NCBI GenBank assembly: GCA_043822705.1
Contig: JBDRBK010000055.1
Span: 1 to 64,000 of the forward strand
DNA from: Fidelibacterota bacterium
GTDB taxonomy: Bacteria; Fidelibacterota; Marinisomatia; Marinisomatales; TCS56
Reading direction: 5' to 3'
Length of the DNA stretch: 64,000 nucleotides
The notes below the pieces were generated by a model that did not search any database, had not been told where the DNA came from, and saw nothing but the letters and a program-made list of their open reading frames with translations. Position numbers and translations under genes: made by a program. Positions within the stretch are counted from its first letter, which is position 1. Every line of letters starts with the position of its first letter. Positions 27,984 through 46,159 of this stretch are shown one piece after another.

Positions 27984-29068
27984 AATCGCCCCAGCAAGTT
28001 GCCGATGCCCTTGACCGGGTTCAGCCAGTTGATCGACCGCAATGCCAGCCGTAGCCGGCGGAATATCCAATTGAAAGGTGGCCGGATTCCTGTAAGGAGG
28101 ATGATGATTCCAAGTAACAGATACAGCAATCCGGCCATTTTTAACAACACGGACAACAACCAGTTGACCGGCGCCAGCCATTTTGACATCAGTTTCCGTG
28201 ATTTGTCGATCGTGGCATTCTGACGTTGCCAGAGATCGCCCCAGGCGGATAACGCCTGGCGGAAATGCGCTAATCGCAGCCATTTTCTGACATAAACTCG
28301 GGGAAATAAATTTTTATGCTGGCCGGTCATCAACACTTCAGCCCGGTTGATAATCGCCAGGGACTGCTCCCAATCGGCATAGACATTGGCCGAGTAACCA
28401 GCGCCCGTCCGGCGCCAGTCTGCCAACGCCTCCGGAATGAAGCAGGCGCCAGCGCGCAAGGCCATGGCCTGGTACGCAAAACCGTCGGCAAACGGACCAA
28501 GTTCAGTGTGAAATCCGCCGACGGCCGCCCAGGTCGAGCGCCGGTAGATCAGCGCATTGCCCATGAAACAGGGACCGTAATCCAGTAATTTTTCCACCAC
28601 CATACCGGGTGTGAAATAACATTGTTTCTGATTTACCACCGGTGACAAATAATTACCGATTATCCGGCCGTCCGCGGTAATCATTCCGGCCAGCCCGGAA
28701 CAGAGTCCGGCACTGGGAAATTTTTCCAGCAGTACCATGGATTTACGGAAAAAGCCCGGCCGAATCCGGTCATCGGCGGCGGCGAAATACAGGTAATCGC
28801 CCGAGGCCCGGTCCAGTAATTTTTGGATCGCCGCCAGACCGCCGGTATTTTCTTCATTGCGCAGGAAGATAATCCGGGGATAATCCCGGATAAATTCCCC
28901 GATTATCGCAACGCTGTCATCGGTGGAACCGTCATCGATCACCAGCAATTCGAAATCGTCGTAATCCTGACTGACTATCGCCGCCAGGCTTTCACGCAGG
29001 TAACGGCCGTGATTATAATTAGCCAGCATGACCGACAAACGGGGTTTCGATGAATCGGCGTTCGGCAT
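27980..29068 (-). CDS. GT2 family glycosyltransferase
   Basis: LSVMLANYNH, IDDGSTDDS, AADD; hydrophobic C-terminus. Confidence 0.9.
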   Translation of the reverse strand: MPNADSSKPRLSVMLANYNHGRYLRESLAAIVSQDYDDFELLVIDDGSTDDSVAIIGEFIRDYPRIIFLRNEENTGGLAAIQKLLDRASGDYLYFAAADDRIRPGFFRKSMVLLEKFPSAGLCSGLAGMITADGRIIGNYLSPVVNQKQCYFTPGMVVEKLLDYGPCFMGNALIYRRSTWAAVGGFHTELGPFADGFAYQAMALRAGACFIPEALADWRRTGAGYSANVYADWEQSLAIINRAEVLMTGQHKNLFPRVYVRKWLRLAHFRQALSAWGDLWQRQNATIDKSRKLMSKWLAPVNWLLSVLLKMAGLLYLLLGIIILLTGIRPPFNWIFRRLRLALRSINWLNPVKGIGNLLGRL

Positions 29069-29071
29069 CGG

Positions 29072-30874
29072 TCAGTCCCGCGAGACCTCCAGCGGTTCGA
29101 CGATCATCAGCCCCCGGAATTCCTCACGATCCAGATAGGGATACATATCCTCCAAGGGCCGGGCGAAGCCGGTGCCATCGGGACGTCGCACAAATCCCTG
29201 CCGGGGGATCAATTCCTGGCGGGGATCGATCATGATTTCGCAGATGGCCGGACCCGGCTGGTCCAGCGTCCAGCGGATTTTTTCCTGTAACTCGGCCTGC
29301 GATGCTACCCTGGTCGCGGGAATTTCATAGGCTGCCGCCACTTTCTGATAATCGGGCAGACTCATGCCGCCGGCAGTTGCGGAGCCGGCAAAATTGCCCT
29401 CCAGGAATTCGGCCTGGGTGTGGCGGATCGACAGGTAACCGTCGTTATTGAAGACAAATATTTTCACTAGCAGATTATGATGACGAATGGTCTGCAATTC
29501 CTGAATATTGAACTGGAAGCTGCCATCGCCCATCATGCAGATTGTGCGACCACCGGTGGAAGCAAAAGTAGCGCCCACACTTTCCGGCAGACCGCTGCCC
29601 ATGGCGCCGATTCCTCCGGAATAGAGAATCCGCTGGCCGGCTTTCATTTTCAGCGCCTGAAATGTAGTGTAGACCACTGTGCCGCCACCATCTACTACAA
29701 CGGTATCAGCGGCGGTGAGCTGGGCGTCCAGCGCTTGCAGGAATACGTACTGGTTGACCGGTCCCGACCGCTCAATCCACTCGGCCGGATAAGCATTGTA
29801 TTTCCGGTAAACGCGACATTGTTCCAACCAATCGTCACTAAGGCCGGAAATTAAATCGCTTTCTGTGATCTTTCTTAAAAAATCCCCGGCGTCGGCGGCA
29901 ATTCCCAGATCGACACGCACCGTCGGGTGAGCCAGTTCATTGTGGTCGATATCCACCACAATCCGTTTAGCCTCCCGGGCAAAATAGTCAAAATTGGTGC
30001 CGGTGAGCGGCACGCTCAGGTGCGAGCCAATCGCCAGCAGCAGGTCACAATTCTGTACCGCCAGGTTGGCGCCGCGCTGCCCGGCCAGTCCGCAACGACC
30101 AACATAGCCGGGATGATCGGTGGGCAGCAGATCGCAGGCGGCCCAACTGGATACGAATGGCACCTGCAATTCATCCACAAGTTGTGAGAATTCTTTTTCC
30201 GCACTGGCCAGCCGAATGCCGTAACCGGCCAGAATCAGCGGTCTTTTTGCAGCGGCCAGCAGGTCCCGGCATTCATTCACTAACCCGGTCAGATCGATCT
30301 CTCCGACAACTGCAAATTCACTGTCCGGATCGAAGCCGGTCATGGTTTCGGGATCGACCTCCGCCCATTGCAGGTCCAACGGAATATCCAGCCAGACCGG
30401 TCCCGGTCGCCCGGCGGTAGCCAGGAAGGCCGCTTTTTCCAGATGATAACGAATCGAGTCGGCACGCTCCACCAGGGCGGCGTAATTGGTTACCGGTTCC
30501 ACCAGCGCCAGAATGTCCAGTTCCTGCGAACCGACCTGCCGAACCGGTTTGCCACGCGAGGTGTGGGCCAGCCGGGTCTGACCGGAAATGTAGAAGCAGG
30601 GAACCGAATCCTGCCAGGCGCCGATGACGCCGGTCAGGGCGTTGGTACCGCCGGGACCGGTAGTGACGATACAGGCGCCGGGACTATTCCTGATTTTGGC
30701 ATAGGCCGGCGCCGCCAGTGCGGCAGCCTGTTCGTGGTGACAGAAAACCGGTTTCAGACCGGGATGTTTGGCGGCCGAGTCAAAGAAATGGACCACGGCG
30801 CCGCCGGTGAGCCCGAAAACAGTGTCTACACCCTGCCGGGTCAGAAAATCGATGATAAAATCAGTCAGTTTCAT
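29072..30874 (-). CDS. ThDP-dependent enzyme, acetolactate-synthase-like (YerE-type context)
   Basis: HHEQAA, TTGPGGTN, GRPGPVWLDIPLD, GDGSFQFNIQEL...NN; no small subunit gene nearby. Confidence 0.88.
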   Translation of the reverse strand: MKLTDFIIDFLTRQGVDTVFGLTGGAVVHFFDSAAKHPGLKPVFCHHEQAAALAAPAYAKIRNSPGACIVTTGPGGTNALTGVIGAWQDSVPCFYISGQTRLAHTSRGKPVRQVGSQELDILALVEPVTNYAALVERADSIRYHLEKAAFLATAGRPGPVWLDIPLDLQWAEVDPETMTGFDPDSEFAVVGEIDLTGLVNECRDLLAAAKRPLILAGYGIRLASAEKEFSQLVDELQVPFVSSWAACDLLPTDHPGYVGRCGLAGQRGANLAVQNCDLLLAIGSHLSVPLTGTNFDYFAREAKRIVVDIDHNELAHPTVRVDLGIAADAGDFLRKITESDLISGLSDDWLEQCRVYRKYNAYPAEWIERSGPVNQYVFLQALDAQLTAADTVVVDGGGTVVYTTFQALKMKAGQRILYSGGIGAMGSGLPESVGATFASTGGRTICMMGDGSFQFNIQELQTIRHHNLLVKIFVFNNDGYLSIRHTQAEFLEGNFAGSATAGGMSLPDYQKVAAAYEIPATRVASQAELQEKIRWTLDQPGPAICEIMIDPRQELIPRQGFVRRPDGTGFARPLEDMYPYLDREEFRGLMIVEPLEVSRD

Positions 30875-30894
30875 AATTTTACCTTTTATCACCA

Positions 30895-30949
30895 TTCGAC
30901 AAGCTCAGGGTGACAATCCAAATATTACTGTCATGGTGAGCTTGTCGAA
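30895..30949. repeat. REP-like palindromic element
   Basis: TTCGACAAGCTCAGGGTGACA (30895-30915) and TGTCATGGTGAGCTTGTCGAA (30929-30949): 21-bp inverted arms with 3 mismatches. Confidence 0.8.
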
Positions 30950-31018: not shown

Positions 31019-31804
31019 TCACTGCCAGGGAAAATGAAAATAGTGCTTGGCCTGACCGCCGTCCACCGGCACGATGGCGCCCTGGCAGAAAGAAGCCTGT
31101 TCCGAGCACAACAGCGCCACCATGGGACTGATCTCATCAGGCGTGCCGAAACGTTTCAGGACGGTACGTTCCTGCAGGTATTTTTCAGCGTGTTCGGGAC
31201 GGGTTTTAATTACTTCCGCCCAGTGTCCGCGTTCGGTGAACACCACGCCCGGTTGCAGGGCCGACATGACGATCCCGCTTTCAGCCAGGACCCGCCCCAT
31301 ACTGCGGGAGTAGGCTGTGAGGGCGGCCTTGATCGAGCAGTAGGTCACGGGACCGTTATTCTCCATGGCCGAACCGGCGGAGATATTGACAATCCGCCCC
31401 CAACCCTGGGCGCGCATATGGGGAATCAGCAGGTTATTAAGCTCCACATGAACTTCGAGATTCATGCGGAACACTTTACGCCAGTCCGTAATCGGGCACT
31501 CCGGATCGGTAATGTCAAGGGTGCTGCCGACGTTGTTCACCAAGATGTCGATCTGGCCGAATTCTCGCCAGATTTCCTCCGCCAGACACCGGGAACCATC
31601 GTCTTCCAGCTGGTCAATTTTCACGGCATAATGCCCACTTCCGGGACCGCCAACTTCAGCCAGCAGGGCATCCAGATCATCCTGTCGCCGCGATGTGAAG
31701 GCCACCAGGACGCCTTCCTTGATCAGTTCCAATACAATCGCTTTACCGATTCCGGTGGCGCCGCCGGTCACCAGGGCGCGTTTTCCTTTGATTCCCAGTT
31801 CCAT
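31019..31804 (-). CDS. Classical SDR oxidoreductase
   Basis: TGGATGIG, DILVNNVG, YCSIK, VDGG. Confidence 0.9.
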   Translation of the reverse strand: MELGIKGKRALVTGGATGIGKAIVLELIKEGVLVAFTSRRQDDLDALLAEVGGPGSGHYAVKIDQLEDDGSRCLAEEIWREFGQIDILVNNVGSTLDITDPECPITDWRKVFRMNLEVHVELNNLLIPHMRAQGWGRIVNISAGSAMENNGPVTYCSIKAALTAYSRSMGRVLAESGIVMSALQPGVVFTERGHWAEVIKTRPEHAEKYLQERTVLKRFGTPDEISPMVALLCSEQASFCQGAIVPVDGGQAKHYFHFPWQ

Positions 31805-31823: not shown

Positions 31824-33041
31824 TCAGATCGTGTTCAAAGGCACAATAACATGTTTGGGGCGCAGTTTGAACAGGTTGGGCAGCATCGCCCGCACATTGT
31901 TCAGGGAGGCCACCGCCGTTAACAGGAACACCGCCTCGCGCTCGTTTGCGATCGCCGCCCGCCCCCGGATCGGTACCGGCAGGTTCAGATAGTACAAACC
32001 ATCCTTGCGGGGATCGTCATCGACGATGCATTCCAGCCCGGACAGATCGTTTTCCAGATAGTAACTCAGTACCGGCAGCATCAGGGCCGCCCCGTAGCCG
32101 TAAATTTTCTCGTCTGCGAAATATTTCAGACGGGCATTGACCGCGGCCATTCCCTGTTTAAAAACCTGGTAGCGCCGGGCAATTTCTGCCGGCGTTATTT
32201 GCCAGATGTCGTTGTCAAAGCGGCCACGGTACCGGCCTTTTCGGAACGCCACCAGCAGGGCGCCCCAGTGCTCGAAATTGAAGGTGTAATCAATCAATTC
32301 GCAACCCAGTTCATTCAGCAGGTGTATCACCGACTGCAGGGTGAAATAATTCAGGTGCTGGTGGAAAATCTGGTCGAAACGCAAATCCTTGAGCGTCGAT
32401 TCCAGGCAGGGGAACTGAAAATAAAACAGGGTATCGTCCGCGGCCCGGTCCACCAGGCGACGGGTAAAATTTTTGGGATCGGCCACATGCTCCAGCGTAT
32501 CCTTGCAGATCAGCAGGTCAAAATTCCGCTCCAGTTCCACATTCTCAAAAAAGTCACCGATGACGGTCAGGTTGGTACCTGCCAGGTCGTCATCAAAATC
32601 CTTGAGAATCGGATCGATACCGGTCAGATGATCGGCATGGCCCTGCAATTCCTTGAGCAGGTACAGGTCGTTGCAACCCACTTCCAGGATGTGCCGGAAA
32701 TGGCGGTCGCCGCTGGTGCGTTTCATGAAATCGCGAAAGAACTGCGCCGACGAACGGCCGGTGGCCGACTCGCTGGTGCGGAAAAAATAGGAGAATGTTT
32801 CGCCGTATTGCAGTCCCACATCGATCACGTTGCGTAATTGGGCGTGGCCGCAGGCAGGACAAAAATCAAGACCCTGATCGGCCCGACCCACCGGTTCATT
32901 CACTTTTTCGGCTACATAAATCTCGGTCATCGGCAACCGGGGCAGGTCGATCGCCGAAGGTTGTGAAGCCTGTCCGCAGATCATACAATTATCCCGCTTT
33001 GCAAATGCTACCGTACGGTATCTGGAAATATCTATCTTCAT
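31824..33041 (-). CDS. NDP-sugar C-methyltransferase-like protein
   Basis: Zn ligands CMIC/CPAC, LEVGCND, IFHQHLNYF, YGYGAA, VDDDPRKDG. Confidence 0.8.
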   Translation of the reverse strand: MKIDISRYRTVAFAKRDNCMICGQASQPSAIDLPRLPMTEIYVAEKVNEPVGRADQGLDFCPACGHAQLRNVIDVGLQYGETFSYFFRTSESATGRSSAQFFRDFMKRTSGDRHFRHILEVGCNDLYLLKELQGHADHLTGIDPILKDFDDDLAGTNLTVIGDFFENVELERNFDLLICKDTLEHVADPKNFTRRLVDRAADDTLFYFQFPCLESTLKDLRFDQIFHQHLNYFTLQSVIHLLNELGCELIDYTFNFEHWGALLVAFRKGRYRGRFDNDIWQITPAEIARRYQVFKQGMAAVNARLKYFADEKIYGYGAALMLPVLSYYLENDLSGLECIVDDDPRKDGLYYLNLPVPIRGRAAIANEREAVFLLTAVASLNNVRAMLPNLFKLRPKHVIVPLNTI

Positions 33042-33053: not shown

Positions 33054-33833
33054 TTAATAACCAGGCTGCAGTGACAACTGTTGTAATGATTGGATCATGT
33101 GACAGGGTTGCTGCATAAAATCACTGCGGCTGCCCAACCCGGTGAGCACGCCGATATTGCAGGGAATGGAGGCCCGGATGCCCATCTCAATATCCACCGG
33201 ATGATCGCCGATCGAGGCCGTCTTCCAGGCCGGAACATCACAAATCTGCATTGCCAGGCGGGCGGGATCAGCAGCCGGTTTGCCGTTCTCTACCTGATCG
33301 CCGCCGATTACGGCGGTGAAATAATGATCGATCCTCAGCGCCTGCAATGCCAGTTGAATTCGCTCCCGCTTGTCCGCCGAAACCAGCGCCACCTGCACCT
33401 GGTTTTGCCGACAAGTGTGCAGAAATTCTACCACACCGGGCAGTAGTCGCAGCAGCGGTTCCGGATCGACCGCCGTCACCCGGTCGACTTGTTGAAACAG
33501 GTCTTCCACCGCCGCGGCGTCAATTTTCACGCCATTATCAGTGATTATTCGCCGGGCCACATCGACAATAAAACGTCGCGGCATAACGCCCACCGGTCCG
33601 TCCGACTTCATGCGACCGTTGATCTGATCGAATCCCAGGGCGTCGATTAATGCATTGCCGACCTTTTCCCCGATTGGCTGGCCGGCGAATAACTGGTCGA
33701 CAATCGTGGCGGCCCGCCGCCGGATCATCGAGCCCCAGTAATGATGGATGTCGATCAGAGTGCCGTCCTTGTCCAGCAGGATCAGCTCCACACCCTGCAA
33801 AACCACCTGTCTGTTGGCCAGTAAATCAATCAT
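33054..33833 (-). CDS. HAD-superfamily phosphatase
   Basis: LDKDGTL, GKPAAD, IGDHPVD. Confidence 0.88.
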   Translation of the reverse strand: MIDLLANRQVVLQGVELILLDKDGTLIDIHHYWGSMIRRRAATIVDQLFAGQPIGEKVGNALIDALGFDQINGRMKSDGPVGVMPRRFIVDVARRIITDNGVKIDAAAVEDLFQQVDRVTAVDPEPLLRLLPGVVEFLHTCRQNQVQVALVSADKRERIQLALQALRIDHYFTAVIGGDQVENGKPAADPARLAMQICDVPAWKTASIGDHPVDIEMGIRASIPCNIGVLTGLGSRSDFMQQPCHMIQSLQQLSLQPGY

Positions 33834-34848
33834 GCTTCAGATTCCTGCGGATTAAATCACGGGCGATTACCACGGCTTCACCGATCTGCTGGGGATCATT
33901 TTCGAATCCCGGCTGATGGATAAAATCTTTGACGATTTTGCGGGCATGAGTACCGATGCTGACACCATGGAAAGGCACCGCACACTGGCGGGCCAGGTCA
34001 CCGGTAAAACCATTGGTACCGCCGGAGAGCAGAGTCGGGATATGGCGATAGCGTTTATCTTTTAACAGTAATTCTTTATTGATGATATCAGCGATCGCGA
34101 TCGCCTGCAACGTGGTGTTGAAATCATTGCTGCCGCCGCTCATGGGGACGCCGTCGGCCTGGATCATCAAACGCTCACCTGCCACCGCATAGGCCTGGCG
34201 TATCCGCTCAATCAGCTGCACGTTGGATAAATGATAACGATCGAGACAGAGTGAAACGAAATTATCCGGTTGGGCCGCCGCGACGATTTCCCATTCCTGC
34301 ATAATCGTATCGTTATCGGGAACGGCGGCGTGCAACTCAATATTCTCGGCCCCGGCAGCCAGGCATTCCGGCAGGATTTCGGCCAGTTCGCACTGATTGT
34401 GTTCATAACTGATAGCCGCTACCTTGGGCGGACAGACCGCCTCACAATTACCGCAGCCGATGCACAGGTCGCGAATCACCGTCAGTTCCGCCGGGATCGC
34501 GGCGGTGGGACAGACCGGAATGCAGCGGTTGCAGCCGACGCAGGCGTCGGTGATGATTGCCTTGCGAACGTGGTGATCGCCCCTCATTCCCACACTGACC
34601 TTGATGAACGGTCGCAACGGGATGGCGACCGTATAGCTGTCCGCCAACTCATAGGCCCGATCGATTCCGGCAACACCGGCCCGGACAATTTCCGGGCTGG
34701 CGGACACGTCGAACCCGGTGGCGCCGGCCAGGGTGTAAACCAGGGTTAATTTATAGACATCGTCAGAGTTCTCATTGCCGGCACCGCAGACCAGTTTGAA
34801 ATAGCGGCCCTCGTCGAGCAACTGGCGCAATTGTTCAAAACGGGTCAT
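33826..34848 (-). CDS. ldpA: LdpA-family 2x[4Fe-4S] protein
   Basis: FKLVCGAG, CVGCNRCIPVCP, CIGCGNCEAVCP, IELH, QADGVPMSGG...TT, LSGGTN. Confidence 0.75.
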   Translation of the reverse strand: MTRFEQLRQLLDEGRYFKLVCGAGNENSDDVYKLTLVYTLAGATGFDVSASPEIVRAGVAGIDRAYELADSYTVAIPLRPFIKVSVGMRGDHHVRKAIITDACVGCNRCIPVCPTAAIPAELTVIRDLCIGCGNCEAVCPPKVAAISYEHNQCELAEILPECLAAGAENIELHAAVPDNDTIMQEWEIVAAAQPDNFVSLCLDRYHLSNVQLIERIRQAYAVAGERLMIQADGVPMSGGSNDFNTTLQAIAIADIINKELLLKDKRYRHIPTLLSGGTNGFTGDLARQCAVPFHGVSIGTHARKIVKDFIHQPGFENDPQQIGEAVVIARDLIRRNLKHD

Positions 34849-36599
34849 ACCTGTGGCCCGACGGAGATGAAATTGGTAATGCTTTCGTAGTACAACCGAT
34901 GGGTGGTGGGCGTAATGATGATCAGATCATTCATTTCATTGGCCACCAGATAATCGTTGATCTGCTTCAGGGACGCCTCCACGTAGTTGTGCCACTCCAT
35001 CTGCTCCCGGTAGGTCCCTGAGCGACTGGAAATCCCGGCCTTGTCACCCGCGTTCACGTCGTCTGCGGAATCACCCAGCCCGGCATTGAAGAACGTCTCG
35101 AAATCCTTATAGCCGTCCATCCCGGCGATGAACACGCGCCGGGCACCCATCGCCAGGGCAGCGGCAATCGACAGGATCGGAATCGCCCGGTAATCGCCAC
35201 CAATGATTCCATCAGTCAGACTGAATTCAGCCATCGGCCCGGCGCCATGCTGAATCAGTTCATAGCTGCGGTCGGTGTGCCGGCGGATATAATCATACTC
35301 AAAACCGTTACAGAGCAGCAGACCGGAATCGGGGTGCACGCTGGTAACATGTTGCTCAAACAAACGGCGATTGTTAAAGGAATGATAGTGCGGCACGAAC
35401 AGGTCACCCAGATAATTGGACCCGATTACTACGGGCTGGTATTGTTCGATGAACCGTTGAATATCCATCCGGCATGTGGCCAGCGAGGAACCATTCGCCA
35501 GAATCAGAAAGTCGCTGCCCTGGTAGCGGTCCGTATAGTCGGGCTTGATCGGTATCACCGGCGCCCGGTCGTCTTCCTCTGCATGGCCGGTATCGGATTG
35601 ACGCCCGACGAAACCGGTCTGGACGATCTGCGGCACGATATTCTTGTCAAAGCCCACCGGGTTCATGCACTGGATCAACTGCAGCACCGACTGGATTTCA
35701 TCAATGGTGAATTCGCCACTATCGGTGAGCGCCTTGGCGTAGTTGGGATGAACCTCGTAGACGCCGGAAATCATATAAGGCAGGTTGTAACCCCAGGAAA
35801 AACGGGCTTTCAATTCCAGATACCAGCGCTGGATCAGATCGAGGACCGGCAGCATGTTGTAGCGGTTCTCGTCGATAGTCTTCTGAAAATAGGCAATCAG
35901 TGTTTCCAGTGGCAGGTTGCCGGCACCGCGGCCCATACCGAATACCGTACCGTCAACGATATCGATTTCCGCGGCGATGGCCGCCAATGAATTGGAAAAA
36001 GCCAGTTGCATATTGTTGTGGGGATGGAAGCCTAGTGGCTTGTCCACCGCTCGCAGAATATCGCAGTATTTGTAGATATCCTGGGGCAGCAACGAACCGT
36101 AACTGTCAGCAAAATAGACGTAGGTCAGTTGAGATTCTTTCAACGGCGTCAGAATCTGCTGGAAATCGGCAGCGGTATAGCCGACGATGCCCATCAGTTG
36201 AATAGCGGTCTCATAACCCTTGGCCGCCACCTGGTTGGCAAAATCGATGGCTTCGACCAGCCTGGTTTTGTGACTGGCGATCCGGTACAGCCGGACTGGC
36301 GATTCGGCCGCCGGTGGAATGTCCTCGATATCGGCCTTACCGTAGTCAACCATCAACGCCAGCGGCGCACCGGCCACATTGGACACGATGTCATTCACCA
36401 GGTTTTCCGGCGTGAAGCGCCACAGACCCACCCGAGCGGGATCGAAATATTTTGCCGTACTGCGAAAGCCGATCTCGATATAATCCACCCCGGTCTTGGA
36501 GACCGAGCGGTAGGTGTCCTTCACCAGTTCCCGGGAAAAATCCCAGTTGTTCAGATAGCCCCCGTCGCGGATTGTGCAATCCAGAATTTTTGTTTTCAT
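34845..36599 (-). CDS. DRE-TIM aldolase (4-hydroxy-2-oxovalerate aldolase-like) fused to a Maf/MptE-like Rossmann domain
   Basis: LDCTIRDGGY, YFADSYG, GFHPHNN, GMGRGAGN; C-terminal ILANGSSL...ALAMGARRVFIAGMDGY. Confidence 0.78.
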   Translation of the reverse strand: MKTKILDCTIRDGGYLNNWDFSRELVKDTYRSVSKTGVDYIEIGFRSTAKYFDPARVGLWRFTPENLVNDIVSNVAGAPLALMVDYGKADIEDIPPAAESPVRLYRIASHKTRLVEAIDFANQVAAKGYETAIQLMGIVGYTAADFQQILTPLKESQLTYVYFADSYGSLLPQDIYKYCDILRAVDKPLGFHPHNNMQLAFSNSLAAIAAEIDIVDGTVFGMGRGAGNLPLETLIAYFQKTIDENRYNMLPVLDLIQRWYLELKARFSWGYNLPYMISGVYEVHPNYAKALTDSGEFTIDEIQSVLQLIQCMNPVGFDKNIVPQIVQTGFVGRQSDTGHAEEDDRAPVIPIKPDYTDRYQGSDFLILANGSSLATCRMDIQRFIEQYQPVVIGSNYLGDLFVPHYHSFNNRRLFEQHVTSVHPDSGLLLCNGFEYDYIRRHTDRSYELIQHGAGPMAEFSLTDGIIGGDYRAIPILSIAAALAMGARRVFIAGMDGYKDFETFFNAGLGDSADDVNAGDKAGISSRSGTYREQMEWHNYVEASLKQINDYLVANEMNDLIIITPTTHRLYYESITNFISVGPQV

Positions 36600-36614: not shown

Positions 36615-37658
36615 TTAATCATGTTCCAGTTTGACGATCGCCCGGCCGACCCGACCCTGCTCCAGTTCAGTGAAGGCGGCATTAATCTCAGACAAAGTAA
36701 ACTCATGGGTGATTAAGCGTTCCAGCGGCAGGTCCGCGGACAGGTATAATTCCACATATGCAGGGATATCGCGATCGGGATCGCTGGCGCCGCCCCAACT
36801 GCCGTAGATCCGCTTGCCTTTGATCAGGTCGAAGGGATCGAGACAGATTTTTTCACCGGCGGCGGGATTGCCGGCGATGATGCACTGGCCACTGTTCTTG
36901 ATCGACGCAAAGGCCGCCTCCATCACGGTAGTGCTGCCCGTGGCCTCAATTGCAAAATCGACGCCACCGGGAACGACAGCATGAATTTCCGCTGCTGCGC
37001 TGGTCGTTTTACCGTTGATGACATGGGTGGCACCCAGGGACCGGGCCTGTTCCAGCTTGTGATCGAAGACATCGACGGCTATGATCGGACCGGCACCCAG
37101 GGCGGCAGCGGTCATGATGGCGCTCAGACCGATCCCGCCGGCGCCGAATACCGCCAGACTATTGCCCGGTCCGACCTGCAAAGAATTTCGGACGATACCC
37201 ACCCCGGTGGGAATGGCGCAACCCAGCAGGGCGGCCTCCCGCAAAGGCATGCCGGCCGGAATCACCACCAGCCGGTTTTCCGAAATCACGGCATTGGTCA
37301 AAAAAGTTGAGATTGCCCCGGAATTGACTTTTGCGCCACGGTAAAAATATTGGGCTGACGGCACATCGGCACCGCTGCCTTTCAGCCAGGTACAAACCAC
37401 CCGATCGCCGGGAGCGACTTTAGCTACCTGGGCACCGGTGGCCACCACCCGGCCCGAACCTTCGTGTCCCAGGGTGTGGGGCAGGAATTTATCCGGACCT
37501 TTTTTGCCGCGGATTTCATTGAGCTGGGTATGGCAGATGCCGCTGTAGGCCATCTCCACCAGGACCTGTCCCGGGTGCAAATCCGGCAGGTCCAATTCCA
37601 GTATCTGTAACGGTTGGTTCAATTCGGTCAGCACGGCGGCAGTGGTTTTCATTGTCAT
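36615..37658 (-). CDS. Zinc-binding medium-chain alcohol dehydrogenase
   Basis: GICHTQ, GHEGSG, LLGCAIPTG, GAGGIG; no structural-Zn Cys cluster. Confidence 0.9.
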   Translation of the reverse strand: MTMKTTAAVLTELNQPLQILELDLPDLHPGQVLVEMAYSGICHTQLNEIRGKKGPDKFLPHTLGHEGSGRVVATGAQVAKVAPGDRVVCTWLKGSGADVPSAQYFYRGAKVNSGAISTFLTNAVISENRLVVIPAGMPLREAALLGCAIPTGVGIVRNSLQVGPGNSLAVFGAGGIGLSAIMTAAALGAGPIIAVDVFDHKLEQARSLGATHVINGKTTSAAAEIHAVVPGGVDFAIEATGSTTVMEAAFASIKNSGQCIIAGNPAAGEKICLDPFDLIKGKRIYGSWGGASDPDRDIPAYVELYLSADLPLERLITHEFTLSEINAAFTELEQGRVGRAIVKLEHD

Positions 37659-37674
37659 TGTCTGATTCTCAACA

Positions 37675-38733
37675 TTAAAAAGGTCCCTTGAACCAGTCCC
37701 CCGGCACATCGTGGGGCACGTCGCCGCGGTCGATCAATTCGCTGCCCGTCAGGTTTCGCTGCAGCATGGCGGCGGCGGTGTCGATAATATCCTCCGCCCG
37801 TTTATAGAAACCCTTGGTCAGAGCGGGACTGGTGGGGGTGGGGAAGTCCGGCAAAGCCAGCAGCCACGGAGCCTGTTTCAAATCGTCGAAACAATCACGG
37901 CTGACCCGGGATATTATTTCACTGGCGATCGATCCGAAGGCCACCCCGGTGTCCACCGCCAGCAGCCGACCGGTCCGGTGCACCGATTCGAAGATCGGCT
38001 GCCAGTTCAGCGGTTTGATCGTCCGCAGGTCGATCAGGTCGCATCCGATGCCGTTTTCGGCCAGAATTCGTACGGCATGGAGCGCTTCCACCGACATGTA
38101 GGACATGGATACGATCGTCAGGTCAGCACCACTGCTGAGCAGCGCCGGCTGGCCCAGCGGCAACCGGAAATCGCCTTCCGGCACTGCACCCACCTGATTA
38201 TGAAGCCAGCGGTGTTCCAGAAATATCACCGGGTTGTCATCGAAAATGCTGGACAGCAGCAGACCTTTGGCATCGGCAGCGGTGGAGGGCATCACCACTT
38301 TCAATCCCGGAATATGGGCGAATAACGCCTGTAAATTCTGTGAATGCGTCGGACCCTGCCCCCAGCCCCGCCCCAGCAGCAGGCGAATCGTGATCGGGAT
38401 GGCCGTCTGGCCATCGAACATGTAATGCCATTTGGCAGCGTTGTTAATCAACTGATCCAGGGCCAGCAGGAAGAAATCCAGGCGCTGGTGGGTCATTACC
38501 GGGCGTATACCGTTCATGGCGGCGCCGATGGCGACGCCGGTCAGGGCGTTTTCAGCGGTGGGCATATCGAACACCCGTTCCACCCCGAATTTTTCCTGCA
38601 AACCGACAGTGGTGCCGAATACCCCCCGGGGGTCGGGCACGCCCAGACCGTAACAGATCACATTCGGATCGTCGGTCATGGCCTGTTGCAGCGCTTCGTT
38701 AATCGCCTGGGCGTAAGTGATCTGCCGGTTCAT
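37675..38733 (-). CDS. 2-oxoacid dehydrogenase E1 beta-like subunit
   Basis: RVFDMPTAEN, GPTHSQ, PGLKVVMPS, PVIFLEH, IDLRTIKP. Confidence 0.9.
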   Translation of the reverse strand: MNRQITYAQAINEALQQAMTDDPNVICYGLGVPDPRGVFGTTVGLQEKFGVERVFDMPTAENALTGVAIGAAMNGIRPVMTHQRLDFFLLALDQLINNAAKWHYMFDGQTAIPITIRLLLGRGWGQGPTHSQNLQALFAHIPGLKVVMPSTAADAKGLLLSSIFDDNPVIFLEHRWLHNQVGAVPEGDFRLPLGQPALLSSGADLTIVSMSYMSVEALHAVRILAENGIGCDLIDLRTIKPLNWQPIFESVHRTGRLLAVDTGVAFGSIASEIISRVSRDCFDDLKQAPWLLALPDFPTPTSPALTKGFYKRAEDIIDTAAAMLQRNLTGSELIDRGDVPHDVPGDWFKGPF

Positions 38734-39719
38734 TTGACGACCTCTTCACCGGCATACAAATTTTCAAATGCCACGGACTGGTCCGGGAAGGGAGCCGCCT
38801 CCGCCTGCTCGAAGGCCCGGTCGATTTCGACCCTGGCCTGTTCCCACCAGCGGGCAAAATCGCCTTCACCGGCATAATTGGACTGCCACAGCTCCCGTTT
38901 CATTTGCGCCAGCGGATCCCGTTCCCGCCAGACGGCAAACTCCTCTTCGGTGCGGTAACCCAGATCATTGTCGTAATTCGGCCCGCAATGCTCGCGCCAG
39001 CGGTAGGTGGCAAATTCCAGGAATTCCGGTCCCTGTCCCGACCGAATACGTTCCGTCGCCAGATTGACCTTCTGGAAAACTTCAACGACGTTATTTCCAT
39101 CACCGGCACCGGTTTTAATACCCAATCCGGCCAGTGATTCATGGATTTTCCGGCCGGCCGGTTGACGCACCGACAGTGGAGAATAGACAGAATACAGGTT
39201 GTTTTCACAGATGAACAGGACCGGCAGGTTTTTCAGAACGGCAAAATTAATCGATTCATATAGTACGCCCTCCTCCACCGCCGCATCGCCGAAAAAGACC
39301 GTACTGATCTGGTCGGTTTTTTGCAGACTGATCGACAGGCCCAGCCCCACCGCCAGCGGAATCGTATTGCCGACGATCGAGGTGCTGCCCATGAATCCCA
39401 CCGCTTTGTCGATCAGATGCATCGAGCCGCCCTTGCCGGAATTGCAGCCGCTGGCCTTGCCGTAAATCTCGGCGATCATCCGCTCCAGGTCACCGCCTTT
39501 AGCCAGGTAGTGAGCATGGGCCCGGTGAGTACTGAGGACAAAATCGGTATCCCGGAGATTCTCGCAAACGCCGGCGGCCACCCCTTCCTGGCCGATCGAA
39601 AGATGGGTCGGGCAACGCATCTTCCATTCGGAATAGCGTTCGGCGATGGCTTCTTCGGTCAGACGGATTTTGAGCATCCGTCGATAGAGTGAGTGCGCTG
39701 TTTTGCGGTCGATCTGCAT
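38730..39719 (-). CDS. 2-oxoacid dehydrogenase E1 alpha-like subunit
   Basis: HLSIGQE, STHRAH, GKGGSMH, FGDAAVEEG...ENN, TYRWREH. Confidence 0.9.
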   Translation of the reverse strand: MQIDRKTAHSLYRRMLKIRLTEEAIAERYSEWKMRCPTHLSIGQEGVAAGVCENLRDTDFVLSTHRAHAHYLAKGGDLERMIAEIYGKASGCNSGKGGSMHLIDKAVGFMGSTSIVGNTIPLAVGLGLSISLQKTDQISTVFFGDAAVEEGVLYESINFAVLKNLPVLFICENNLYSVYSPLSVRQPAGRKIHESLAGLGIKTGAGDGNNVVEVFQKVNLATERIRSGQGPEFLEFATYRWREHCGPNYDNDLGYRTEEEFAVWRERDPLAQMKRELWQSNYAGEGDFARWWEQARVEIDRAFEQAEAAPFPDQSVAFENLYAGEEVVK

Positions 39720-39740: not shown

Positions 39741-40400
39741 TCAGGGAATGAACCAGTAATAATCGCCGGTATAACCGATCTCCTTAAAAAACTGCTGCCA
39801 CTCTTCCACATGCATGATCGTTTTGGCGGTCAGGTTCCAGGCCAGCATTAATTCTTTTTCTTCATCGTCGCGGTAGGCATCCATGGTGACAAAGCTCTGG
39901 CCGCGGCTGACGCGCTCGATCTCCTGCAGGGCGCGGCCGCATTCTTCCCGTGCCAGATTATGGACGGTGTTAATCGAAATCACCACGTCGAAAGAGTCGT
40001 CGTCGAAAGGCAGGGATTTGGCGTCCGCCACCTGCACATGGGGCCGCATGTCGTCCATGGCATTTTCGATGGCATACTCGGAGATATCGATGCCCTTCAC
40101 GGTAATGCCGGGGATCAGCTCCGCCATATCATGCAGCATAAAACCTTTGCCACAACCCACATCCAGCAGGCTGCTGTCACCCCTAAGACCGAAATGCTGT
40201 TGAAGCGTTGGCACTACCGGTTGCCAGAAACGGGAGAAATAATTGTAACCACCGTAACCGTGTTTGCGATCGCCGTCAAAAAATTCCCGGCCGAATTGAC
40301 GGGCGATGGCCCGGTCGGCTGCGGTCTTCTCGGCCCCGCGCTCCTTCACGTTGCGCTTGGTCTTGGGGTAGTTCACTAATAAATCAATTTCACGACCCAT
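39741..40400 (-). CDS. Class I SAM-dependent methyltransferase
   Basis: LDVGCGKG, GIDIS, LPFDDDSFD; FFDGDRKHGYGGY. Confidence 0.88.
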   Translation of the reverse strand: MGREIDLLVNYPKTKRNVKERGAEKTAADRAIARQFGREFFDGDRKHGYGGYNYFSRFWQPVVPTLQQHFGLRGDSSLLDVGCGKGFMLHDMAELIPGITVKGIDISEYAIENAMDDMRPHVQVADAKSLPFDDDSFDVVISINTVHNLAREECGRALQEIERVSRGQSFVTMDAYRDDEEKELMLAWNLTAKTIMHVEEWQQFFKEIGYTGDYYWFIP

Positions 40401-40423
40401 GGCGTCCTCCTTGACTGGGTTGG

Positions 40424-41359
40424 TTATACGATTTGTTTCATGATCCGCATATTGTAATAACGGTCATCGTCCTGCAGTTGACCGGACCGGAAGGCATCGA
40501 TCACTTCGGCGATGCCGGCGGCCACACCGTACTGCGGCCGGAAGCCGGTAGCGAGCAATTTGTCGGAGTTGAGCCGGTACGAGCGGGGATCGTTGGATTC
40601 GGTCACCACGATTTCCGCCGGCACCGATTGGGTGGCCAGTCGGGCGATATCCAGAATCGCCAAATTTTCGAAGCCGGCATTGAATACTCCAGTCACGCTG
40701 CCACCCAGTTCCAGAAAATGGCGGTAGACGTTGACCATGTCACGAATATGGATATTGGGCCGGACCTGGTTACCGCCGAACACGGTGATGCGCCCCTTGG
40801 ACAGGGCCTGCATGGTGAGCATATTAACGCTCAGGTCCAGCCGCATCCGGGGTGAATAACCGCAGATCGTGGCCGGCCGGACAATCTGCAGGGCGATCCG
40901 GTCGGCATAGCTCAGCAGCACCCGTTCGCTGATCATTTTGGTCTTGTTGTAATCGCTGATCGGCACCAGTGACAATTCTTCCGTCACCTGCGGTTCTTCC
41001 TTCACACCGTAAACGCTGCCGGAACTGGCATAGATGAACTGCCGCACGTCGCTGGCGATGGCCTTTTCCACTAACTGCATCGAAGCCAGTGCGTTCACTT
41101 CCCAGGTCAGTTTGGAATCCAGATCACCGGTGGGATCGTTGGCGATATTGGCCAGGTGAATGATCGCATCGACGCCGGACATAGGGACAGTGTCGGTATC
41201 GCGGATGTCGGCCCGGAATACCGTCAAATTGGTGTGTGGTTCCAGAAAATTCCCAAACCACTGGGTATCCACTACCGTAACCTGCTGCCCGTCGGACAGT
41301 AATTGCCGGGTCAGTTGAGTGCCCACGTAGCCGCAACCGCCGGTGACTAAAATATGCAT
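40424..41359 (-). CDS. NAD-dependent nucleotide-sugar epimerase/dehydratase/reductase
   Basis: TGGCGYVG, ASSGSVYG, YNKTK. Confidence 0.9.
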   Translation of the reverse strand: MHILVTGGCGYVGTQLTRQLLSDGQQVTVVDTQWFGNFLEPHTNLTVFRADIRDTDTVPMSGVDAIIHLANIANDPTGDLDSKLTWEVNALASMQLVEKAIASDVRQFIYASSGSVYGVKEEPQVTEELSLVPISDYNKTKMISERVLLSYADRIALQIVRPATICGYSPRMRLDLSVNMLTMQALSKGRITVFGGNQVRPNIHIRDMVNVYRHFLELGGSVTGVFNAGFENLAILDIARLATQSVPAEIVVTESNDPRSYRLNSDKLLATGFRPQYGVAAGIAEVIDAFRSGQLQDDDRYYNMRIMKQIV

Positions 41360-41367
41360 CGTTTGTC

Positions 41368-42357
41368 CTATGCCTTGTGTATGTAATCGAATGGTTGGTT
41401 CTGTAAAGTATCCAGGTTGTCGCTGACCCAGGCGATGGTTTCAGCGATCCCCCGCTCCAAAGAAATTGTATCCTGCCAGCCCAATTGCCGGCGGGCTTTG
41501 CTGCTGTCCAGCAGATAGGCCGAATCCTTGCCGGGCCGGTCTCCCACCACCTCCACATTGTCAGCGAATGATTTGCCCAGCCGCTCGGCGATCAGTTCCA
41601 CCAGCGCCCGGATGGAAATATTCTCAGTAGTGGAAAAGTGAAAGATTTCACCAGGAGCGGACTGACGGGCAACCCGCAGCGTGCCGTCGGCCACATCCCT
41701 GATATGAATAAACGATCGCAGCGAATGACCGCCACCGTGCAATTGCAATTTTTTACCCAGCAGGAAGTACAGGATCGTCCGCGGTATGATCCGGTACAGC
41801 TGCTGACCGGGACCATAAACATTGGCCGCCCGGGTGAACACCACCGGAAAGCCGTAGACTTCCTTGAAGGTCATCAGGCTCATATCGGCGGCCGCCCGGG
41901 AAACGGCGTAGGGCGTGCTGGGATTGTATCTGGTGCTTTCAGTCACCAGACCGCTGCAACTGCCGTAAACCTCGGGGGTGGAGATGTGGACATATTTTTT
42001 GAAGCCACCGATTTTCCGCAGTTCATCGTGGAGCTTGATCGTGGCTACCACATTGGTCTGATACCAGTGCTCGGGGTTGAGCCAGCTCTCACCCACCATG
42101 CCCTGAACGGCAAAATTGACGATATAGTCGGGACCAAATTCCCGGACCAGGTGCAGAATCTGCGGCAGGTCGCGGTTCAGATCCAGTTGCTGAAATTGGA
42201 AATTTTGTGAACCAATTGATTTGTAGGGGAGAAACACCGGATCCGATTCAGCCGAACGGCTGATGCCGGTAACCTCCAATCCCTGCTCAAGGCAATGCCG
42301 GACGAACCAGGCGCCGGAAAAGGAATTGGATCCGATTACTAAAATTCGTTCGTTCAT
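41368..42357 (-). CDS. NDP-hexose 4,6-dehydratase-like extended SDR
   Basis: GSNSFSG, STPEVYG, PSTPYAVSR, NVYGPGQ, DRPGKD. Confidence 0.82.
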   Translation of the reverse strand: MNERILVIGSNSFSGAWFVRHCLEQGLEVTGISRSAESDPVFLPYKSIGSQNFQFQQLDLNRDLPQILHLVREFGPDYIVNFAVQGMVGESWLNPEHWYQTNVVATIKLHDELRKIGGFKKYVHISTPEVYGSCSGLVTESTRYNPSTPYAVSRAAADMSLMTFKEVYGFPVVFTRAANVYGPGQQLYRIIPRTILYFLLGKKLQLHGGGHSLRSFIHIRDVADGTLRVARQSAPGEIFHFSTTENISIRALVELIAERLGKSFADNVEVVGDRPGKDSAYLLDSSKARRQLGWQDTISLERGIAETIAWVSDNLDTLQNQPFDYIHKA

Positions 42358-42932
42358 CGCTCGCTGGTCGAATATTCGGTTTTACCGATGATCATGTCCA
42401 CCACCGCCAGCAGCCAGACCTGATGCACGCCTTCCACGTGGTTGTAGGCCTTGCTGTCCACCCACAGGTTGATATCACCCAACTGCTGCAAGGGATTATC
42501 GGCCTCGAATCCCGACAGGGTGATCACTTTGGAAAAATTCTTTTTTCGGGCGGCATGGCAACCATTCAAAATATTTTTCGATCGGCCACTGGATGAAATG
42601 GCAATCAGCACATCGCCGGGATGGCCGTAATGTTCGACCGCCTTTTCCACCCATTTTTCATAACCGTAGTCATTGGAAAAACAGGTGATCAGGTCCGATT
42701 CATTGAAATTGATGCAGCGGACGCCGGCATTCTTGGTGATATCCACGGAAACGTGACTGGCGATGGCGGCGCTGCCACCGTTACCGACGATCATGGCGGT
42801 GTGGCCCCAGTCCCGGGAATCTTCCAGCACCTTTTTAATGTCCACCAGCTGTGCCAGTAATTCGGGGGTCGGCACCAGCAGGGCCTGCAGATCGGTGAGA
42901 TAGGTGGATAAGAATTGTTTGGGTTCGGTCAT
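42354..42932 (-). CDS. gmhA: SIS-domain phosphosugar isomerase (GmhA-like)
   Basis: GNGGSAAIASH, NDYGY, ISSSGRSKNI, VE..H. Confidence 0.8.
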   Translation of the reverse strand: MTEPKQFLSTYLTDLQALLVPTPELLAQLVDIKKVLEDSRDWGHTAMIVGNGGSAAIASHVSVDITKNAGVRCINFNESDLITCFSNDYGYEKWVEKAVEHYGHPGDVLIAISSSGRSKNILNGCHAARKKNFSKVITLSGFEADNPLQQLGDINLWVDSKAYNHVEGVHQVWLLAVVDMIIGKTEYSTSER

Positions 42933-44452
42933 TATTTCAGGCAGGTGGTCAGTGTTTTTAGCATCTGGGTTTTACTCAAAGCGGTCTTGTTGCCGATCGT
43001 CGCAACGGCATGAGCGCCGGCCAGGTTGCCCAGCAGCAGGGTCAGGTCCATCGGCATGTTGACCGCACAGCATAGCGCAGCCATCGACAACAGGGTGTCG
43101 CCGGCACCGATCCGGTCTACGACTTTGTTGGCGAAAGCCGGACACTCGATGAAGCCATCGCCGTTGGCGAATGACAGGGAGCCGTGGCTGCCGCGGGTGA
43201 TGATCACATTTTTGCAGTTCAGCTCGGACTGCAGCGTCTGGGCCAGTTCGCGGATATCACGGGTGCGGCTGCGGTACTCCTGGCGCAGTTCACCTTCATG
43301 GATGGAAACAAAATCAGAGCGGCGGTACCGCGGAATGGTATAATAACCCACGTTAGCGGCATTGGATTGGGTATTCACCGCCAGGAATTTGGCCTTTTCA
43401 GTCAGCAGGTCCACCACTTTGGGGGTAACCAATCCATGGCCGTAATCGGTAACGATCACCACATCGTAATGCGGCAATGCTTTTTCCAGCCGGCGACAGA
43501 ATTCCGCCTCTTCCCGTTCGCTGATTAATTCATCGTTAATTTCATAGACGCCGAACTGCTTGGTGTTGGAATAGGCATCGACGTAGCGGCGCTTGACGAT
43601 AGTGGGCGAACCGGACTTACGAATGCAATCCAGGCCCACATTATCTTTGATATGATTTTTAATGAAATTGGAATAAGAGCCGTTCTCGCCGAGGTAGCTG
43701 AATAATTTGGCTTTTTTGGTAAAGCCGGAAACATGATTGGCCACCGCCAGGACGCCGCCGGCATACATTTCCTGGGATATTTTCTGGGTGGCGATGATCG
43801 GCTCTTTGCCCGATTTGCCGAGAGCAGTGCAATAGACATATTCATCCAGAATAATTTCACCCACCAGCAGAACTTTCAGATTAGTCATTTGCTCGAAATA
43901 ACTGAAAATTTCCGCTCCCGTATATTTAGCTTTGATCCGTCCAAGGTAAACCTGCTGTTCGGGATTAAAAACCGGCAGGTACTGGTTGATTAATTCGGAG
44001 GAACTGGAAGTAGGTGTATCGGTGAATTCAATATCGCCGCCAACGGACCGGACTGCATCCGCTTCCAGGTTGATATTGCCGGTGAGATCGTTCTTGGCCT
44101 GTTTATAATCGGGACCTTTAACATAAATATCCGGTTTGAGCTGTTTGATCGTTTCGATCGCCGTGGGCCAGTTGTTGAGGCCCACAAAGTCAACGATGTC
44201 CAGGGCCATCAGCGACTCACCCCGGAGCACTTCCGGGAAGGCCGGCCGGCTTGGTCCCTTGTTGACGAAGCGGTCCGGTGTCAACGTCACGATCAGCACG
44301 TCCCCCAACTGCTTGGCAGCCTGGAGATATTTGATATGGCCGATGTGCAGCAGATCGAAAACACCGTGGCAATGGACCACTTTTTTACCGGTTTCCTTAA
44401 TACTGCGGACAATCGGCGCCAGCTCATCGATGCTGTACAATTTGTTATTCAT
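42932..44452 (-). CDS. Bifunctional nucleotidyltransferase + PfkB sugar kinase (HldE-like, reversed domain order)
   Basis: N-terminal HGVFDLLHIGH, NKGPSRP, YVKGPDY; C-terminal TDYGHG, DRIGAGD. Confidence 0.88.
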   Translation of the reverse strand: MNNKLYSIDELAPIVRSIKETGKKVVHCHGVFDLLHIGHIKYLQAAKQLGDVLIVTLTPDRFVNKGPSRPAFPEVLRGESLMALDIVDFVGLNNWPTAIETIKQLKPDIYVKGPDYKQAKNDLTGNINLEADAVRSVGGDIEFTDTPTSSSSELINQYLPVFNPEQQVYLGRIKAKYTGAEIFSYFEQMTNLKVLLVGEIILDEYVYCTALGKSGKEPIIATQKISQEMYAGGVLAVANHVSGFTKKAKLFSYLGENGSYSNFIKNHIKDNVGLDCIRKSGSPTIVKRRYVDAYSNTKQFGVYEINDELISEREEAEFCRRLEKALPHYDVVIVTDYGHGLVTPKVVDLLTEKAKFLAVNTQSNAANVGYYTIPRYRRSDFVSIHEGELRQEYRSRTRDIRELAQTLQSELNCKNVIITRGSHGSLSFANGDGFIECPAFANKVVDRIGAGDTLLSMAALCCAVNMPMDLTLLLGNLAGAHAVATIGNKTALSKTQMLKTLTTCLK

Positions 44453-44732
44453 AAACGCACTCGGAATTAGTACCTGAAATCATCACTGGATTAAGTACAA
44501 ATACTATTCCACCATCCGGAAATGAATAAGGAACTGATTTTTTACTGGGAAAATAACCTGAAACAGGATATCTGATCAGCCATAGGTTTAGTAACAGGAA
44601 TCCTATGCCGGTACATTATAATCAATAAGGGGAAATTATTTCCCGGTCAACGGAAAGTTTCAGGTGGGAAGGATTGTGGAATTATTATTGCGGTGGGCTG
44701 AATTGAGACAGAATAATGAATCAACAATCAAT

Positions 44733-46058: not shown

Positions 46059-46159
46059 ATTTTTGTTTAGGAGTTGCCATAAATCCACTTTCAAACAGCA
46101 AACATTTTTTAAAATCGTGGCGCCGGTTGCGCGCCATTGCAAATACGTTGGAGTAATTA

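Follow-up and report, generated by a model that had tools for sequence, protein, structure and literature searches.

An LdpA-family gene in a bacterial glycan operon: a probable enzyme of keto-acid sugar supply

Why does a gene of the LdpA family, known from the cyanobacterial circadian clock, lie between an aldolase gene and a phosphatase gene in a glycan operon of a bacterium from another phylum? The gene in question is carried by a stretch of 64,000 nucleotides (hereafter the window; contig JBDRBK010000055.1 of assembly GCA_043822705.1, positions 1 to 64,000) from a Fidelibacterota bacterium. In the sources cited here, LdpA is presented as an iron–sulfur (Fe–S) redox sensor (PMC13421787, PMC6378743), the mechanism of which a 2026 review calls unresolved (PMC13421787); it is described as conserved (PMC5464585), was termed exclusive to cyanobacteria in a survey of 11,264 genomes (PMC5520375), and is merely cited in a further paper (PMC9659335). 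Our literature search, which left subscription journals mostly uncovered, returned no enzymatic or non-cyanobacterial account of LdpA. The locus contradicts the exclusivity of LdpA to cyanobacteria. The analysis below suggests that the LdpA-like protein is very probably an enzyme in keto-acid sugar supply, whether or not its step is a redox step, and we consider it rather likely that, as a TIM-barrel enzyme, it catalyzes the redox conversion of a small phosphorylated sugar or sugar acid in an ulosonate-making module.

An LdpA-family protein with a predicted Fe–S barrel fold

The LdpA-like gene (33826..34848, minus strand; 340 aa) is preceded by the aldolase gene (34845..36599, minus strand; 584 aa) and followed by a HAD phosphatase gene (33054..33833, minus strand; 259 aa). 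As a sequence-only reading of this DNA had stated, an ATGA at 34848-34845 holds both the aldolase stop and the LdpA-like start, and the LdpA-like stop and the HAD start overlap by 8 nucleotides (33826-33833). The three open reading frames (ORFs), the ferredoxin motifs (C103/106/109/113-P114 and C129/132/135/139-P140) and the other LdpA-type motifs (KLVCGA 18-23, IELH 170-173, QADGxPMSG 230-238, GGTN 276-279) were all found as claimed. Overlaps alone are frequent in operons, so it is the conserved neighborhood of the relatives that provides evidence beyond chance.

Membership of the LdpA family was confirmed with hidden Markov models (HMMs), the protein scoring 31.3 bits against Pfam LdpA_C (PF12617; cut-off 22.2; residues 167-333) and 39 bits against LdpA_Fe-S-bd (PF25160; cut-off 27.6). 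The claim of an LdpA homolog did not extend to a clock equivalog: the NCBIfam model CircClkLdpA (NF045992) gave 129.8 bits against a cut-off of 450, a strict threshold given that native Prochlorococcus-family copies reach at most 338 bits, yet these lie far above the 130 bits of the window protein. Homologs formed 1582 clusters at E<=0.001, and the best 120 were at least 61% identical and mostly 338-345 aa long. A quick LG+G4 tree, in which long branches were flagged near the root, placed the window protein in a 60-row clade (SH-aLRT 99) with cassette, phage and small-genome copies, and the native ycf45-linked and plant-like copies in a separate 21-row clade (SH-aLRT 99). From these comparisons the protein is assigned to a sister clade at ~27% identity, within the LdpA family and distinct from the clock equivalog; identity to three native Prochlorococcus-family copies is 27-28%. 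Cluster look-up of 10 distant family members gave no informative names.

A single LdpA-like copy is present in the host genome (3.34 Mb, 93% complete, 6% contaminated), and the gene was found in 2 of 301 genomes of the phylum, both copies within cassettes, which makes it accessory there. No annotated plasmid and no GenBank phage matched the protein at E<=1e-12. The absence of kai genes noted for the window held for the genome as far as KaiB is concerned, which had no match in the 93% complete assembly; KaiC-family matches (PF06745) were partial only, and KaiA and CikA were not searched for. A clock component in the host was rejected on the absence of KaiB.

The AlphaFold (AF2) model of the protein (predicted local distance difference test, pLDDT, 86; predicted template modelling score, pTM, 0.87; pLDDT 56-78 in the ferredoxin part) predicts an eight-stranded (beta/alpha)8 TIM barrel in which a 2x[4Fe-4S] ferredoxin follows strand 3 as an insertion (~95-148). 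Barrel active sites sit at strand ends, and most of the conserved polar residues lie on or just after strands in the secondary structure of the model. A structure check proposed by the sequence-only reading thus found polar residues to be conserved on the catalytic face of a barrel, where K18, D47, S85, D91, H93, E171, H173, Q230 and D232 form a putative active site and G276-G277, G299 and R303 a putative phosphate-binding-type end. Among 90 diverse members, D47, S85, H93, E171, H173, Q230, G233, G276 and G299 are invariant, as are the cysteines C113, C129 and C135; K18, D91, D232 and R303 are almost invariant. All eight cysteines are kept in 54 close relatives. Ten native-clade copies have the same residue as the window protein at 22 listed positions (K18, G22, D47, S85, D91, H93, R95, K96, E171, H173, Q230, D232, G233, M236, S237, G238, G276, G277, N279, G295, G299 and R303). 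Compared with LdpA of Synechococcus elongatus PCC 7942, the window protein likewise passes both Pfam models and has the same barrel-plus-ferredoxin layout, but it has two CxxCxxCxxxC motifs, whereas oxygenic native copies lack C103.

Foldseek matched the barrel model to class II aldolases, and the fold search returned KDPG aldolase (Z 17.7, root-mean-square deviation (rmsd) 2.9, 210 aligned), hexulose-phosphate synthase and deoxyribose-phosphate aldolase (DERA) (17.0) and NeuB/PseI (16.5). A PDB sequence search with the family profile returned only ferredoxin domains among the matches listed, and one with a ferredoxin-less alignment returned nothing significant. A phosphoenolpyruvate (PEP)-dependent ulosonate synthase of the KdsA/NeuB/DAHP type was rejected, with no match to these family HMMs and with likeness in fold only (Z 16.5, tied). 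Barrel conservation ruled out a plain ferredoxin. Between the Fe–S enzyme and the electron carrier that had been proposed, the enzyme gained support; a pure electron carrier has less in its favor, given that conservation is as strong for the barrel residues as for the cysteines and that some relatives have no ferredoxin but retain the barrel motifs. A related explanation, that the protein is a redox sensor or carrier whose barrel is a non-catalytic ligand-binding domain and whose clusters control or assist neighbors such as an RfbH-like dehydrase, agrees with a literature that presents LdpA solely as a redox sensor (PMC13421787, PMC6378743). It is hard to reconcile with a polar pocket conserved residue by residue across 27% identity, or with the absence of KaiB from the host and from all four tested of the many 1.7-2.2 Mb genomes of the cyanobacterial phylum that carry LdpA, which we infer to be non-photosynthetic Gastranaerophilales.

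Constant partners and alternative outputs of the cassette

To describe the neighborhood of relatives, we compiled 116 loci, namely 4 genome loci, the best 80 of 521 metagenome matches, 29 viral loci (L114 being dropped as a fragment), L124, L163, L173 and the window; neighbors were counted within 4 kb, and 50 loci have full 4 kb flanks on both sides. A HAD gene was present at 92/116 loci (47/50 fully flanked) and an aldolase-type gene at 91/116 (47/50 fully flanked), and many of the loci lacking either are short contigs. The enrichment of aldolase, HAD and nucleotide-sugar genes beside the homologs, which the sequence-only reading had anticipated, was found. The LdpA family is already known, and the module is conserved and uncharacterized. 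The partners belong to several families: three HAD families were found at 62, 26 and 5 of the 116 loci, the first being that of the window, and three aldolase families, HpcH, CitE-like and DRE-TIM, at 58, 47 and 33. One protein (P0125) is a natural fusion of an LdpA-like barrel to a BT0820-type HAD, which also argues against a mere sensor or carrier. Core-type loci of the cyanobacterial phylum served as a control: none of the 20 matched the HAD, aldolase, KdsB or thiamine diphosphate (ThDP) enzyme profiles, and 17/20 lie beside a gene that we take to be ycf45 (R3H and Spore_III_AA in Pfam).

Two genes that could use the product exclude each other. Among the 50 fully flanked loci, 27 have a KdsB-like cytidine monophosphate (CMP) transferase, 20 a YerE-like ThDP enzyme, none both and 3 neither; for all 116 loci the numbers are 54, 28, 0 and 34, and at one of them (L105) a KdsB-like gene lies 7.8 kb away. 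The output gene switches at least nine times on the gene tree of the 81 loci having either, and an independent-pairs test gave 7/7, a result that concerns only the absence of "both" since loci with neither gene were left out. KdsB-type enzymes activate 3-deoxy-2-ulosonates, and KdsB takes 2-keto acids. A shared 2-keto acid product predicts just such an exclusion, and the constancy of HAD and aldolase together with the KdsB-or-ThDP pattern suggests a 3-deoxy-2-keto sugar acid as the probable product of the module. A phosphorylated substrate is indicated by the constant presence of the HAD and by the phosphate-binding-type end of the barrel. Dha is a conceivable product, for which a search of the heptulosaric-acid literature, with subscription journals mostly uncovered, gave nothing relevant.

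The aldolase of the window is DRE-TIM pyruvate-aldolase-like, with resemblance to HMGL-like proteins and 4-hydroxy-2-oxovalerate aldolases and with the motifs R11-D12-G13 and H192-x-H194. Its C-terminal domain (model pLDDT 87) has a Maf/CstII/MptE-type fold, the best match being Maf 5MU5 (Z 15.0, rmsd 3.6, 195 aligned), followed by archaeal HPPK (Z 12.2) and a Campylobacter sialyltransferase (Z 11.2); the Atlas labels it MptE-like, and we count the domain in favor of the proposed route. The HAD is of the DKDGT type and phosphoglycolate-phosphatase-like. Three genes downstream of the HAD, a ThDP-dependent carboligase (29072..30895, minus strand), likely the 2-keto acid consumer, has a GDG...NN motif at 456 and 8RPH as its best solved relative (E 1.3e-128), which is JanthE, a YerE-like carboligase accepting ketones (PMC12188165). 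A short-chain dehydrogenase/reductase (SDR; 31019..31804, minus strand) is a candidate YerF-like side-chain reductase, a role suggested by work on branched-sugar clusters (PMC9306805). The only KdsB-like match of the host genome is on another contig, with none in the operon, and no HpcH or CitE-like match was found in the genome.

We propose that the LdpA-like protein, the HAD and the pyruvate aldolase would together produce a 3-deoxy-2-keto sugar acid (ulosonate). In the simplest version, the LdpA-like protein and the HAD would supply the aldehyde, taking the slot of the aldehyde dehydrogenase ErwJ of the erwiniose cluster; alternatively, the LdpA-like protein would act after the aldol step. 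At the sister loci the KdsB-like enzyme would then CMP-activate the ulosonate, and in the window the JanthE/YerE-like enzyme and the SDR would decarboxylate the acid and add a long branch to a nucleoside diphosphate (NDP)-4-keto sugar, the branched sugar being destined for a flagellar or surface glycan. No RfbH-like/DegT-family dehydrase for CDP-4-keto-3,6-dideoxyglucose was among the operon ORFs, and one distant DegT match lies on contig C81; the acceptor is probably another NDP-keto sugar.

Known systems offer partial parallels. In branched-sugar clusters, the donors of YerE-like enzymes are aldolase-made 4-hydroxy-2-oxo acids (C4-C8), ErwE/MMAR_2332/MyGE use 2-keto acids, and in the erwiniose cluster an aldehyde dehydrogenase feeds the aldolase (PMC9306805). 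The window shares aldolase, YerE-like ThDP enzyme and reductase with the acyl-branched sugar clusters (YerE/YerF; ErwE/F/I/J; MMAR_2331/2332; MyGE; JanthE; PMC9306805, PMC12247030), but unlike erwiniose-type clusters its operon has no ErwJ-like acylating aldehyde dehydrogenase and has instead an Fe–S barrel protein and a HAD beside the aldolase. The supplement text of PMC9306805 contains no Fe–S or phosphatase terms, and its unsearchable figures and cluster maps could show such genes. The routes to CMP-Kdo and CMP-Kdn run through KdsA-KdsC-KdsB and through a NeuB-type synthase, a HAD and a CMP synthetase, respectively. A barrel enzyme, a HAD and a CMP-ulosonate synthetase likewise occur together in 54/116 cassette loci; the cassettes differ in having pyruvate aldolases in place of KdsA/NeuB (a NeuB gene lies within 4 kb at 4/116 loci), and the window operon has no KdsB.

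The viral loci L086-L113 are phage-type glycan clusters with the fixed order CitE-like aldolase, LdpA-like gene and HAD of 120-140 aa, to which either a CMP synthetase or a ThDP enzyme is added. DegT/RfbH-like genes flank many of the ThDP-type phage loci, as a sensor or carrier serving an RfbH-like dehydrase would lead one to expect, but the window operon has no DegT-type gene, and with the pocket conservation and the fusion protein we regard that explanation as the least probable of those considered, and quite improbable in itself. Electron donation to RfbH as a general role was rejected, RfbH being absent from the window operon. At 36/84 of loci L001-L084 (e.g. L003:11113-11979, L083:5158-6045), the intact gene has beside it another LdpA paralog, which is degenerate and ~280 aa long; without the ferredoxin and D91/H93, and mostly without G299/R303, this paralog keeps S85, E171, H173 and usually D47 and is possibly a pseudo-enzyme subunit. 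The window has no such paralog. A complex prediction for the aldolase N-domain and the LdpA-like protein scored 0.00, which gives no answer and was used neither for nor against an interaction.

Displacement of native ldpA and the case for a redox step

Clock LdpA differs in its setting: native copies lie in an ndhN/ycf45 context, and the window gene lies in a glycan cassette of a host without kaiB. In the phylum of Prochlorococcus genome G303, 248/251 genomes have an LdpA-family member, as a single match in 245. In the small 1.7-2.2 Mb genomes (L125-L161, L174), the gene before the core copy mostly encodes a serine hydrolase of the beta-lactamase family (35 loci). Two genomes, G385 and G518, have two LdpA copies each.

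Cassette-clade genes occur in the Prochlorococcus family, in genomes whose native site is empty. Of 201 genomes drawn, 194 have native ldpA and 3 a cassette-clade gene, and all 3 carriers fall among the 7 genomes without the native gene (Fisher 2.6e-5, or 7.5e-4 without the centre genome; these values assume independent genomes and loci, which kin are not). The other 4 have no family member; 3 of them also lack ndhN, so that an assembly gap is probable there, and the fourth is G601. In a wider draw, 8/401 genomes carry a cassette-clade gene as their only LdpA copy (116-126 bits). In all eight the native site is assembled and empty, ndhN being followed directly by the next gene, which is HAD-recA in G545, G570, G566, G302 and G304 and ycf45 in G303, G912 and G940; tblastn found no native ldpA remnant at these sites, and the control genomes G473, G463, G555, G556 and G557 have native ldpA there. 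G545 and G570, which appear as single-contig genomes, hold full cassettes, G566 and G302 the foreign gene with only a CitE-like pair, and G912 and G940 the foreign gene alone, between holB and an OmpR-type regulator that we recognize as RpaA-like (the names rplC, ndhN, recA and RpaA are presumed from the sequences). In the same phylum, G320, G356 and G377 have only a cassette-clade copy, and ycf45 of G320 lacks an upstream ldpA. There were at least two independent displacement events within the Prochlorococcus family, a figure that is not a species-tree count. A lone cassette-clade gene between holB and the RpaA-like regulator was also seen in high-GC picocyanobacteria (L080-L082, L084, L240, L241); that it adjoins a clock output regulator there could be coincidental.

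The native gene has been lost wherever the foreign one occurs, and the foreign gene persists where its partners have disappeared; equal function is the best explanation of both. Since the cassette clade displaces native ldpA and the 22 putative active-site residues are identical, LdpA itself is probably an enzyme, and clock LdpA of cyanobacteria, being replaced by this clade, would probably have the same activity; that the two share one is, in our estimate, the likelier case. The displacement thereby lends support to the metabolic role for the family that the sequence-only reading had envisaged.

A different use for such an enzyme would be housekeeping or metabolite repair, in which it would act with the HAD to clear or recycle a phosphorylated by-product; cassettes would then carry it against side reactions of the aldolase and not for making the sugar. 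Near-universal single-copy presence in the cyanobacterial phylum (248/251), persistence of the gene alone after cassette decay (G912, G940) and the phosphoglycolate-phosphatase-like character of the cassette HAD agree with this, as does a small-genome LdpA paired with a DKDGT-type HAD outside any glycan cluster (L207:5373-6218). Outside cyanobacteria, by contrast, the gene is sporadic and both copies of the phylum of the window are in cassettes, and phage glycan clusters hold it tightly between aldolase and HAD; we consider repair improbable. Among the housekeeping genes of a picocyanobacterial genome there is a HAD of the DKDGT type (L204:2728-3519) with homology to that of the cassette (111 bits), and HADs of the L204/L207 type are candidate partners for native LdpA.

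The kinship with Ycf23/DUF561 (PF04481), a barrel homologous to the LdpA-like one (profile-profile probability 98.7, E 2.3e-16, 223 columns), bears on whether the step is a redox step. The alignment matches K18, D47, S85, E171, Q230 and G233, but Ycf23 lacks the ferredoxin, the D91/H93 loop, H173 and R303. PF04481 matches 45/90 LdpA-family members at E<=0.05 and is not among the 16 families matched by the window protein at that threshold, so that the homology holds at family level only. Ycf23 was found in 10/10 genomes of the cyanobacterial phylum (L175-L184), kaiB-less small ones included, and with LdpA this makes two homologous orphan barrels core in the phylum. Our literature search, again with subscription journals mostly uncovered, found no functional study of it. 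Weak sequence matches of Ycf23 are nitronate monooxygenase (NMO, E 4e-5), hexulose-phosphate synthase, HisF and FabK. The phosphate-binding glycine motifs at strands 7 and 8 are present in the LdpA-like protein (G276-G277 and G299, conserved), and being shared with non-flavin barrels they are not specific to barrels that bind flavin mononucleotide (FMN). FMN or a metal is a conceivable cofactor.

Several observations weigh against a redox enzyme common to cassette and clock proteins. Non-flavin enzymes are among the weak matches of Ycf23, and the strand-5 lysine of FMN barrels corresponds to S199/C201. Many barrels share tied scores of Z 15-17.7 in the fold search, and no one function stands out. 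P0152 and P0174 retain the barrel motifs without a ferredoxin, so that the fused clusters may be dispensable. An Fpr-type reductase partner occurs in 1/116 loci and not in the window operon. Core cyanobacterial copies have no aldolase or KdsB nearby, so the product must have another use there, and strains without ldpA are viable and show slight changes in period (PMC12000584). As for the displacement, no family member was found in G601, although its native site is empty, and a single ancestral loss may account for the displaced low-light Prochlorococcus genomes.

Some of these observations would suit a non-redox enzyme in the same pathway, a sugar-phosphate isomerase, epimerase, dehydratase or Schiff-base enzyme, with putative chemistry by K18 with D47/E171 or by a metal held by H93/E171/H173/D232 and with structural or redox-tuning clusters: the nearest folds are sugar-phosphate aldolases, epimerases and isomerases, ferredoxin-less members and Ycf23 have the barrel without clusters, and a reductase partner is rare. 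Speaking for redox chemistry are the eight cysteines invariant in the close relatives, with C113, C129 and C135 kept in the diverse set, the Fpr-type reductase gene of L124, which overlaps the start of the LdpA-like gene, and the FMN enzymes NMO and FabK among the best weak matches of Ycf23. We judge the non-redox enzyme unlikely, though it is the most serious competitor of the redox enzyme that we prefer. A broader reading, in which LdpA is a new Fe–S TIM-barrel enzyme class serving core metabolism of the cyanobacterial phylum and catalyzing the committed step of a PEP-independent route to 3-deoxy-2-ulosonates, is a tentative one that we would not yet favor; it would cover plant and algal homologs, with bacteria and phages using the route for CMP-sugars and branched sugars.

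The mechanism of LdpA becomes testable here, since a foreign sugar-cassette copy that replaces native ldpA suits cross-complementation, and the search for a substrate can be narrowed to small sugar phosphates on account of the neighboring aldolase, HAD and ThDP enzyme. A further implication of the locus is that bacteria and phages would have a route to ulosonic acids and long-branched sugars that has so far not been described. If the broader reading is true, the clock phenotype of LdpA, regarded for two decades as redox input, would be a metabolic side effect, and the operon would name the partner enzymes needed for finding its substrate.

Other genes of the glycan locus

The remaining genes of the operon are all on the minus strand. 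Between the SDR and the HAD lies a sugar C-methyltransferase-like gene (31824..33041; Methyltransf_13/23/14 in Pfam). Upstream of the aldolase, family profiles identified a Zn-dependent alcohol dehydrogenase (36615..37709) and genes like the pyruvate dehydrogenase (PDH) E1 beta (37675-38733) and alpha (38730-39719) subunits, possibly a second ThDP system acting as an acetyl-branching enzyme, a role suggested by PMC12247030. Further upstream (39741..44452) are a methyltransferase, a NAD epimerase, a 4,6-dehydratase-like SDR, a GmhA-like SIS protein and an HldE-like nucleotidyltransferase-kinase, and downstream of the ThDP enzyme, again by family profiles, a family 2 glycosyltransferase (GT2; 27980-29068) and a GT2-TPR glycosyltransferase (25038-28283). 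More GT2-TPR genes and flgH/I/N/K/L-fliW-like flagellar genes are also encoded in the window. This arrangement largely recurs in L005 and L083.

Three tandem paralogous ORFs of 447-452 aa (48638-52703, minus strand; 43-50% identical) lie between a GT4 gene and an SDR gene; they have no Pfam match at 1e-4 and are possibly divergent glycosyltransferases. Two plus-strand ORFs (44664-47083), a 464 aa protein without a Pfam match and a 307 aa methyltransferase, break the minus-strand glycan locus. In the HldE-like protein (42932-44452, minus strand), beside the GmhA-like gene, the nucleotidyltransferase domain precedes the PfkB kinase domain, which is the reverse of the usual HldE order.

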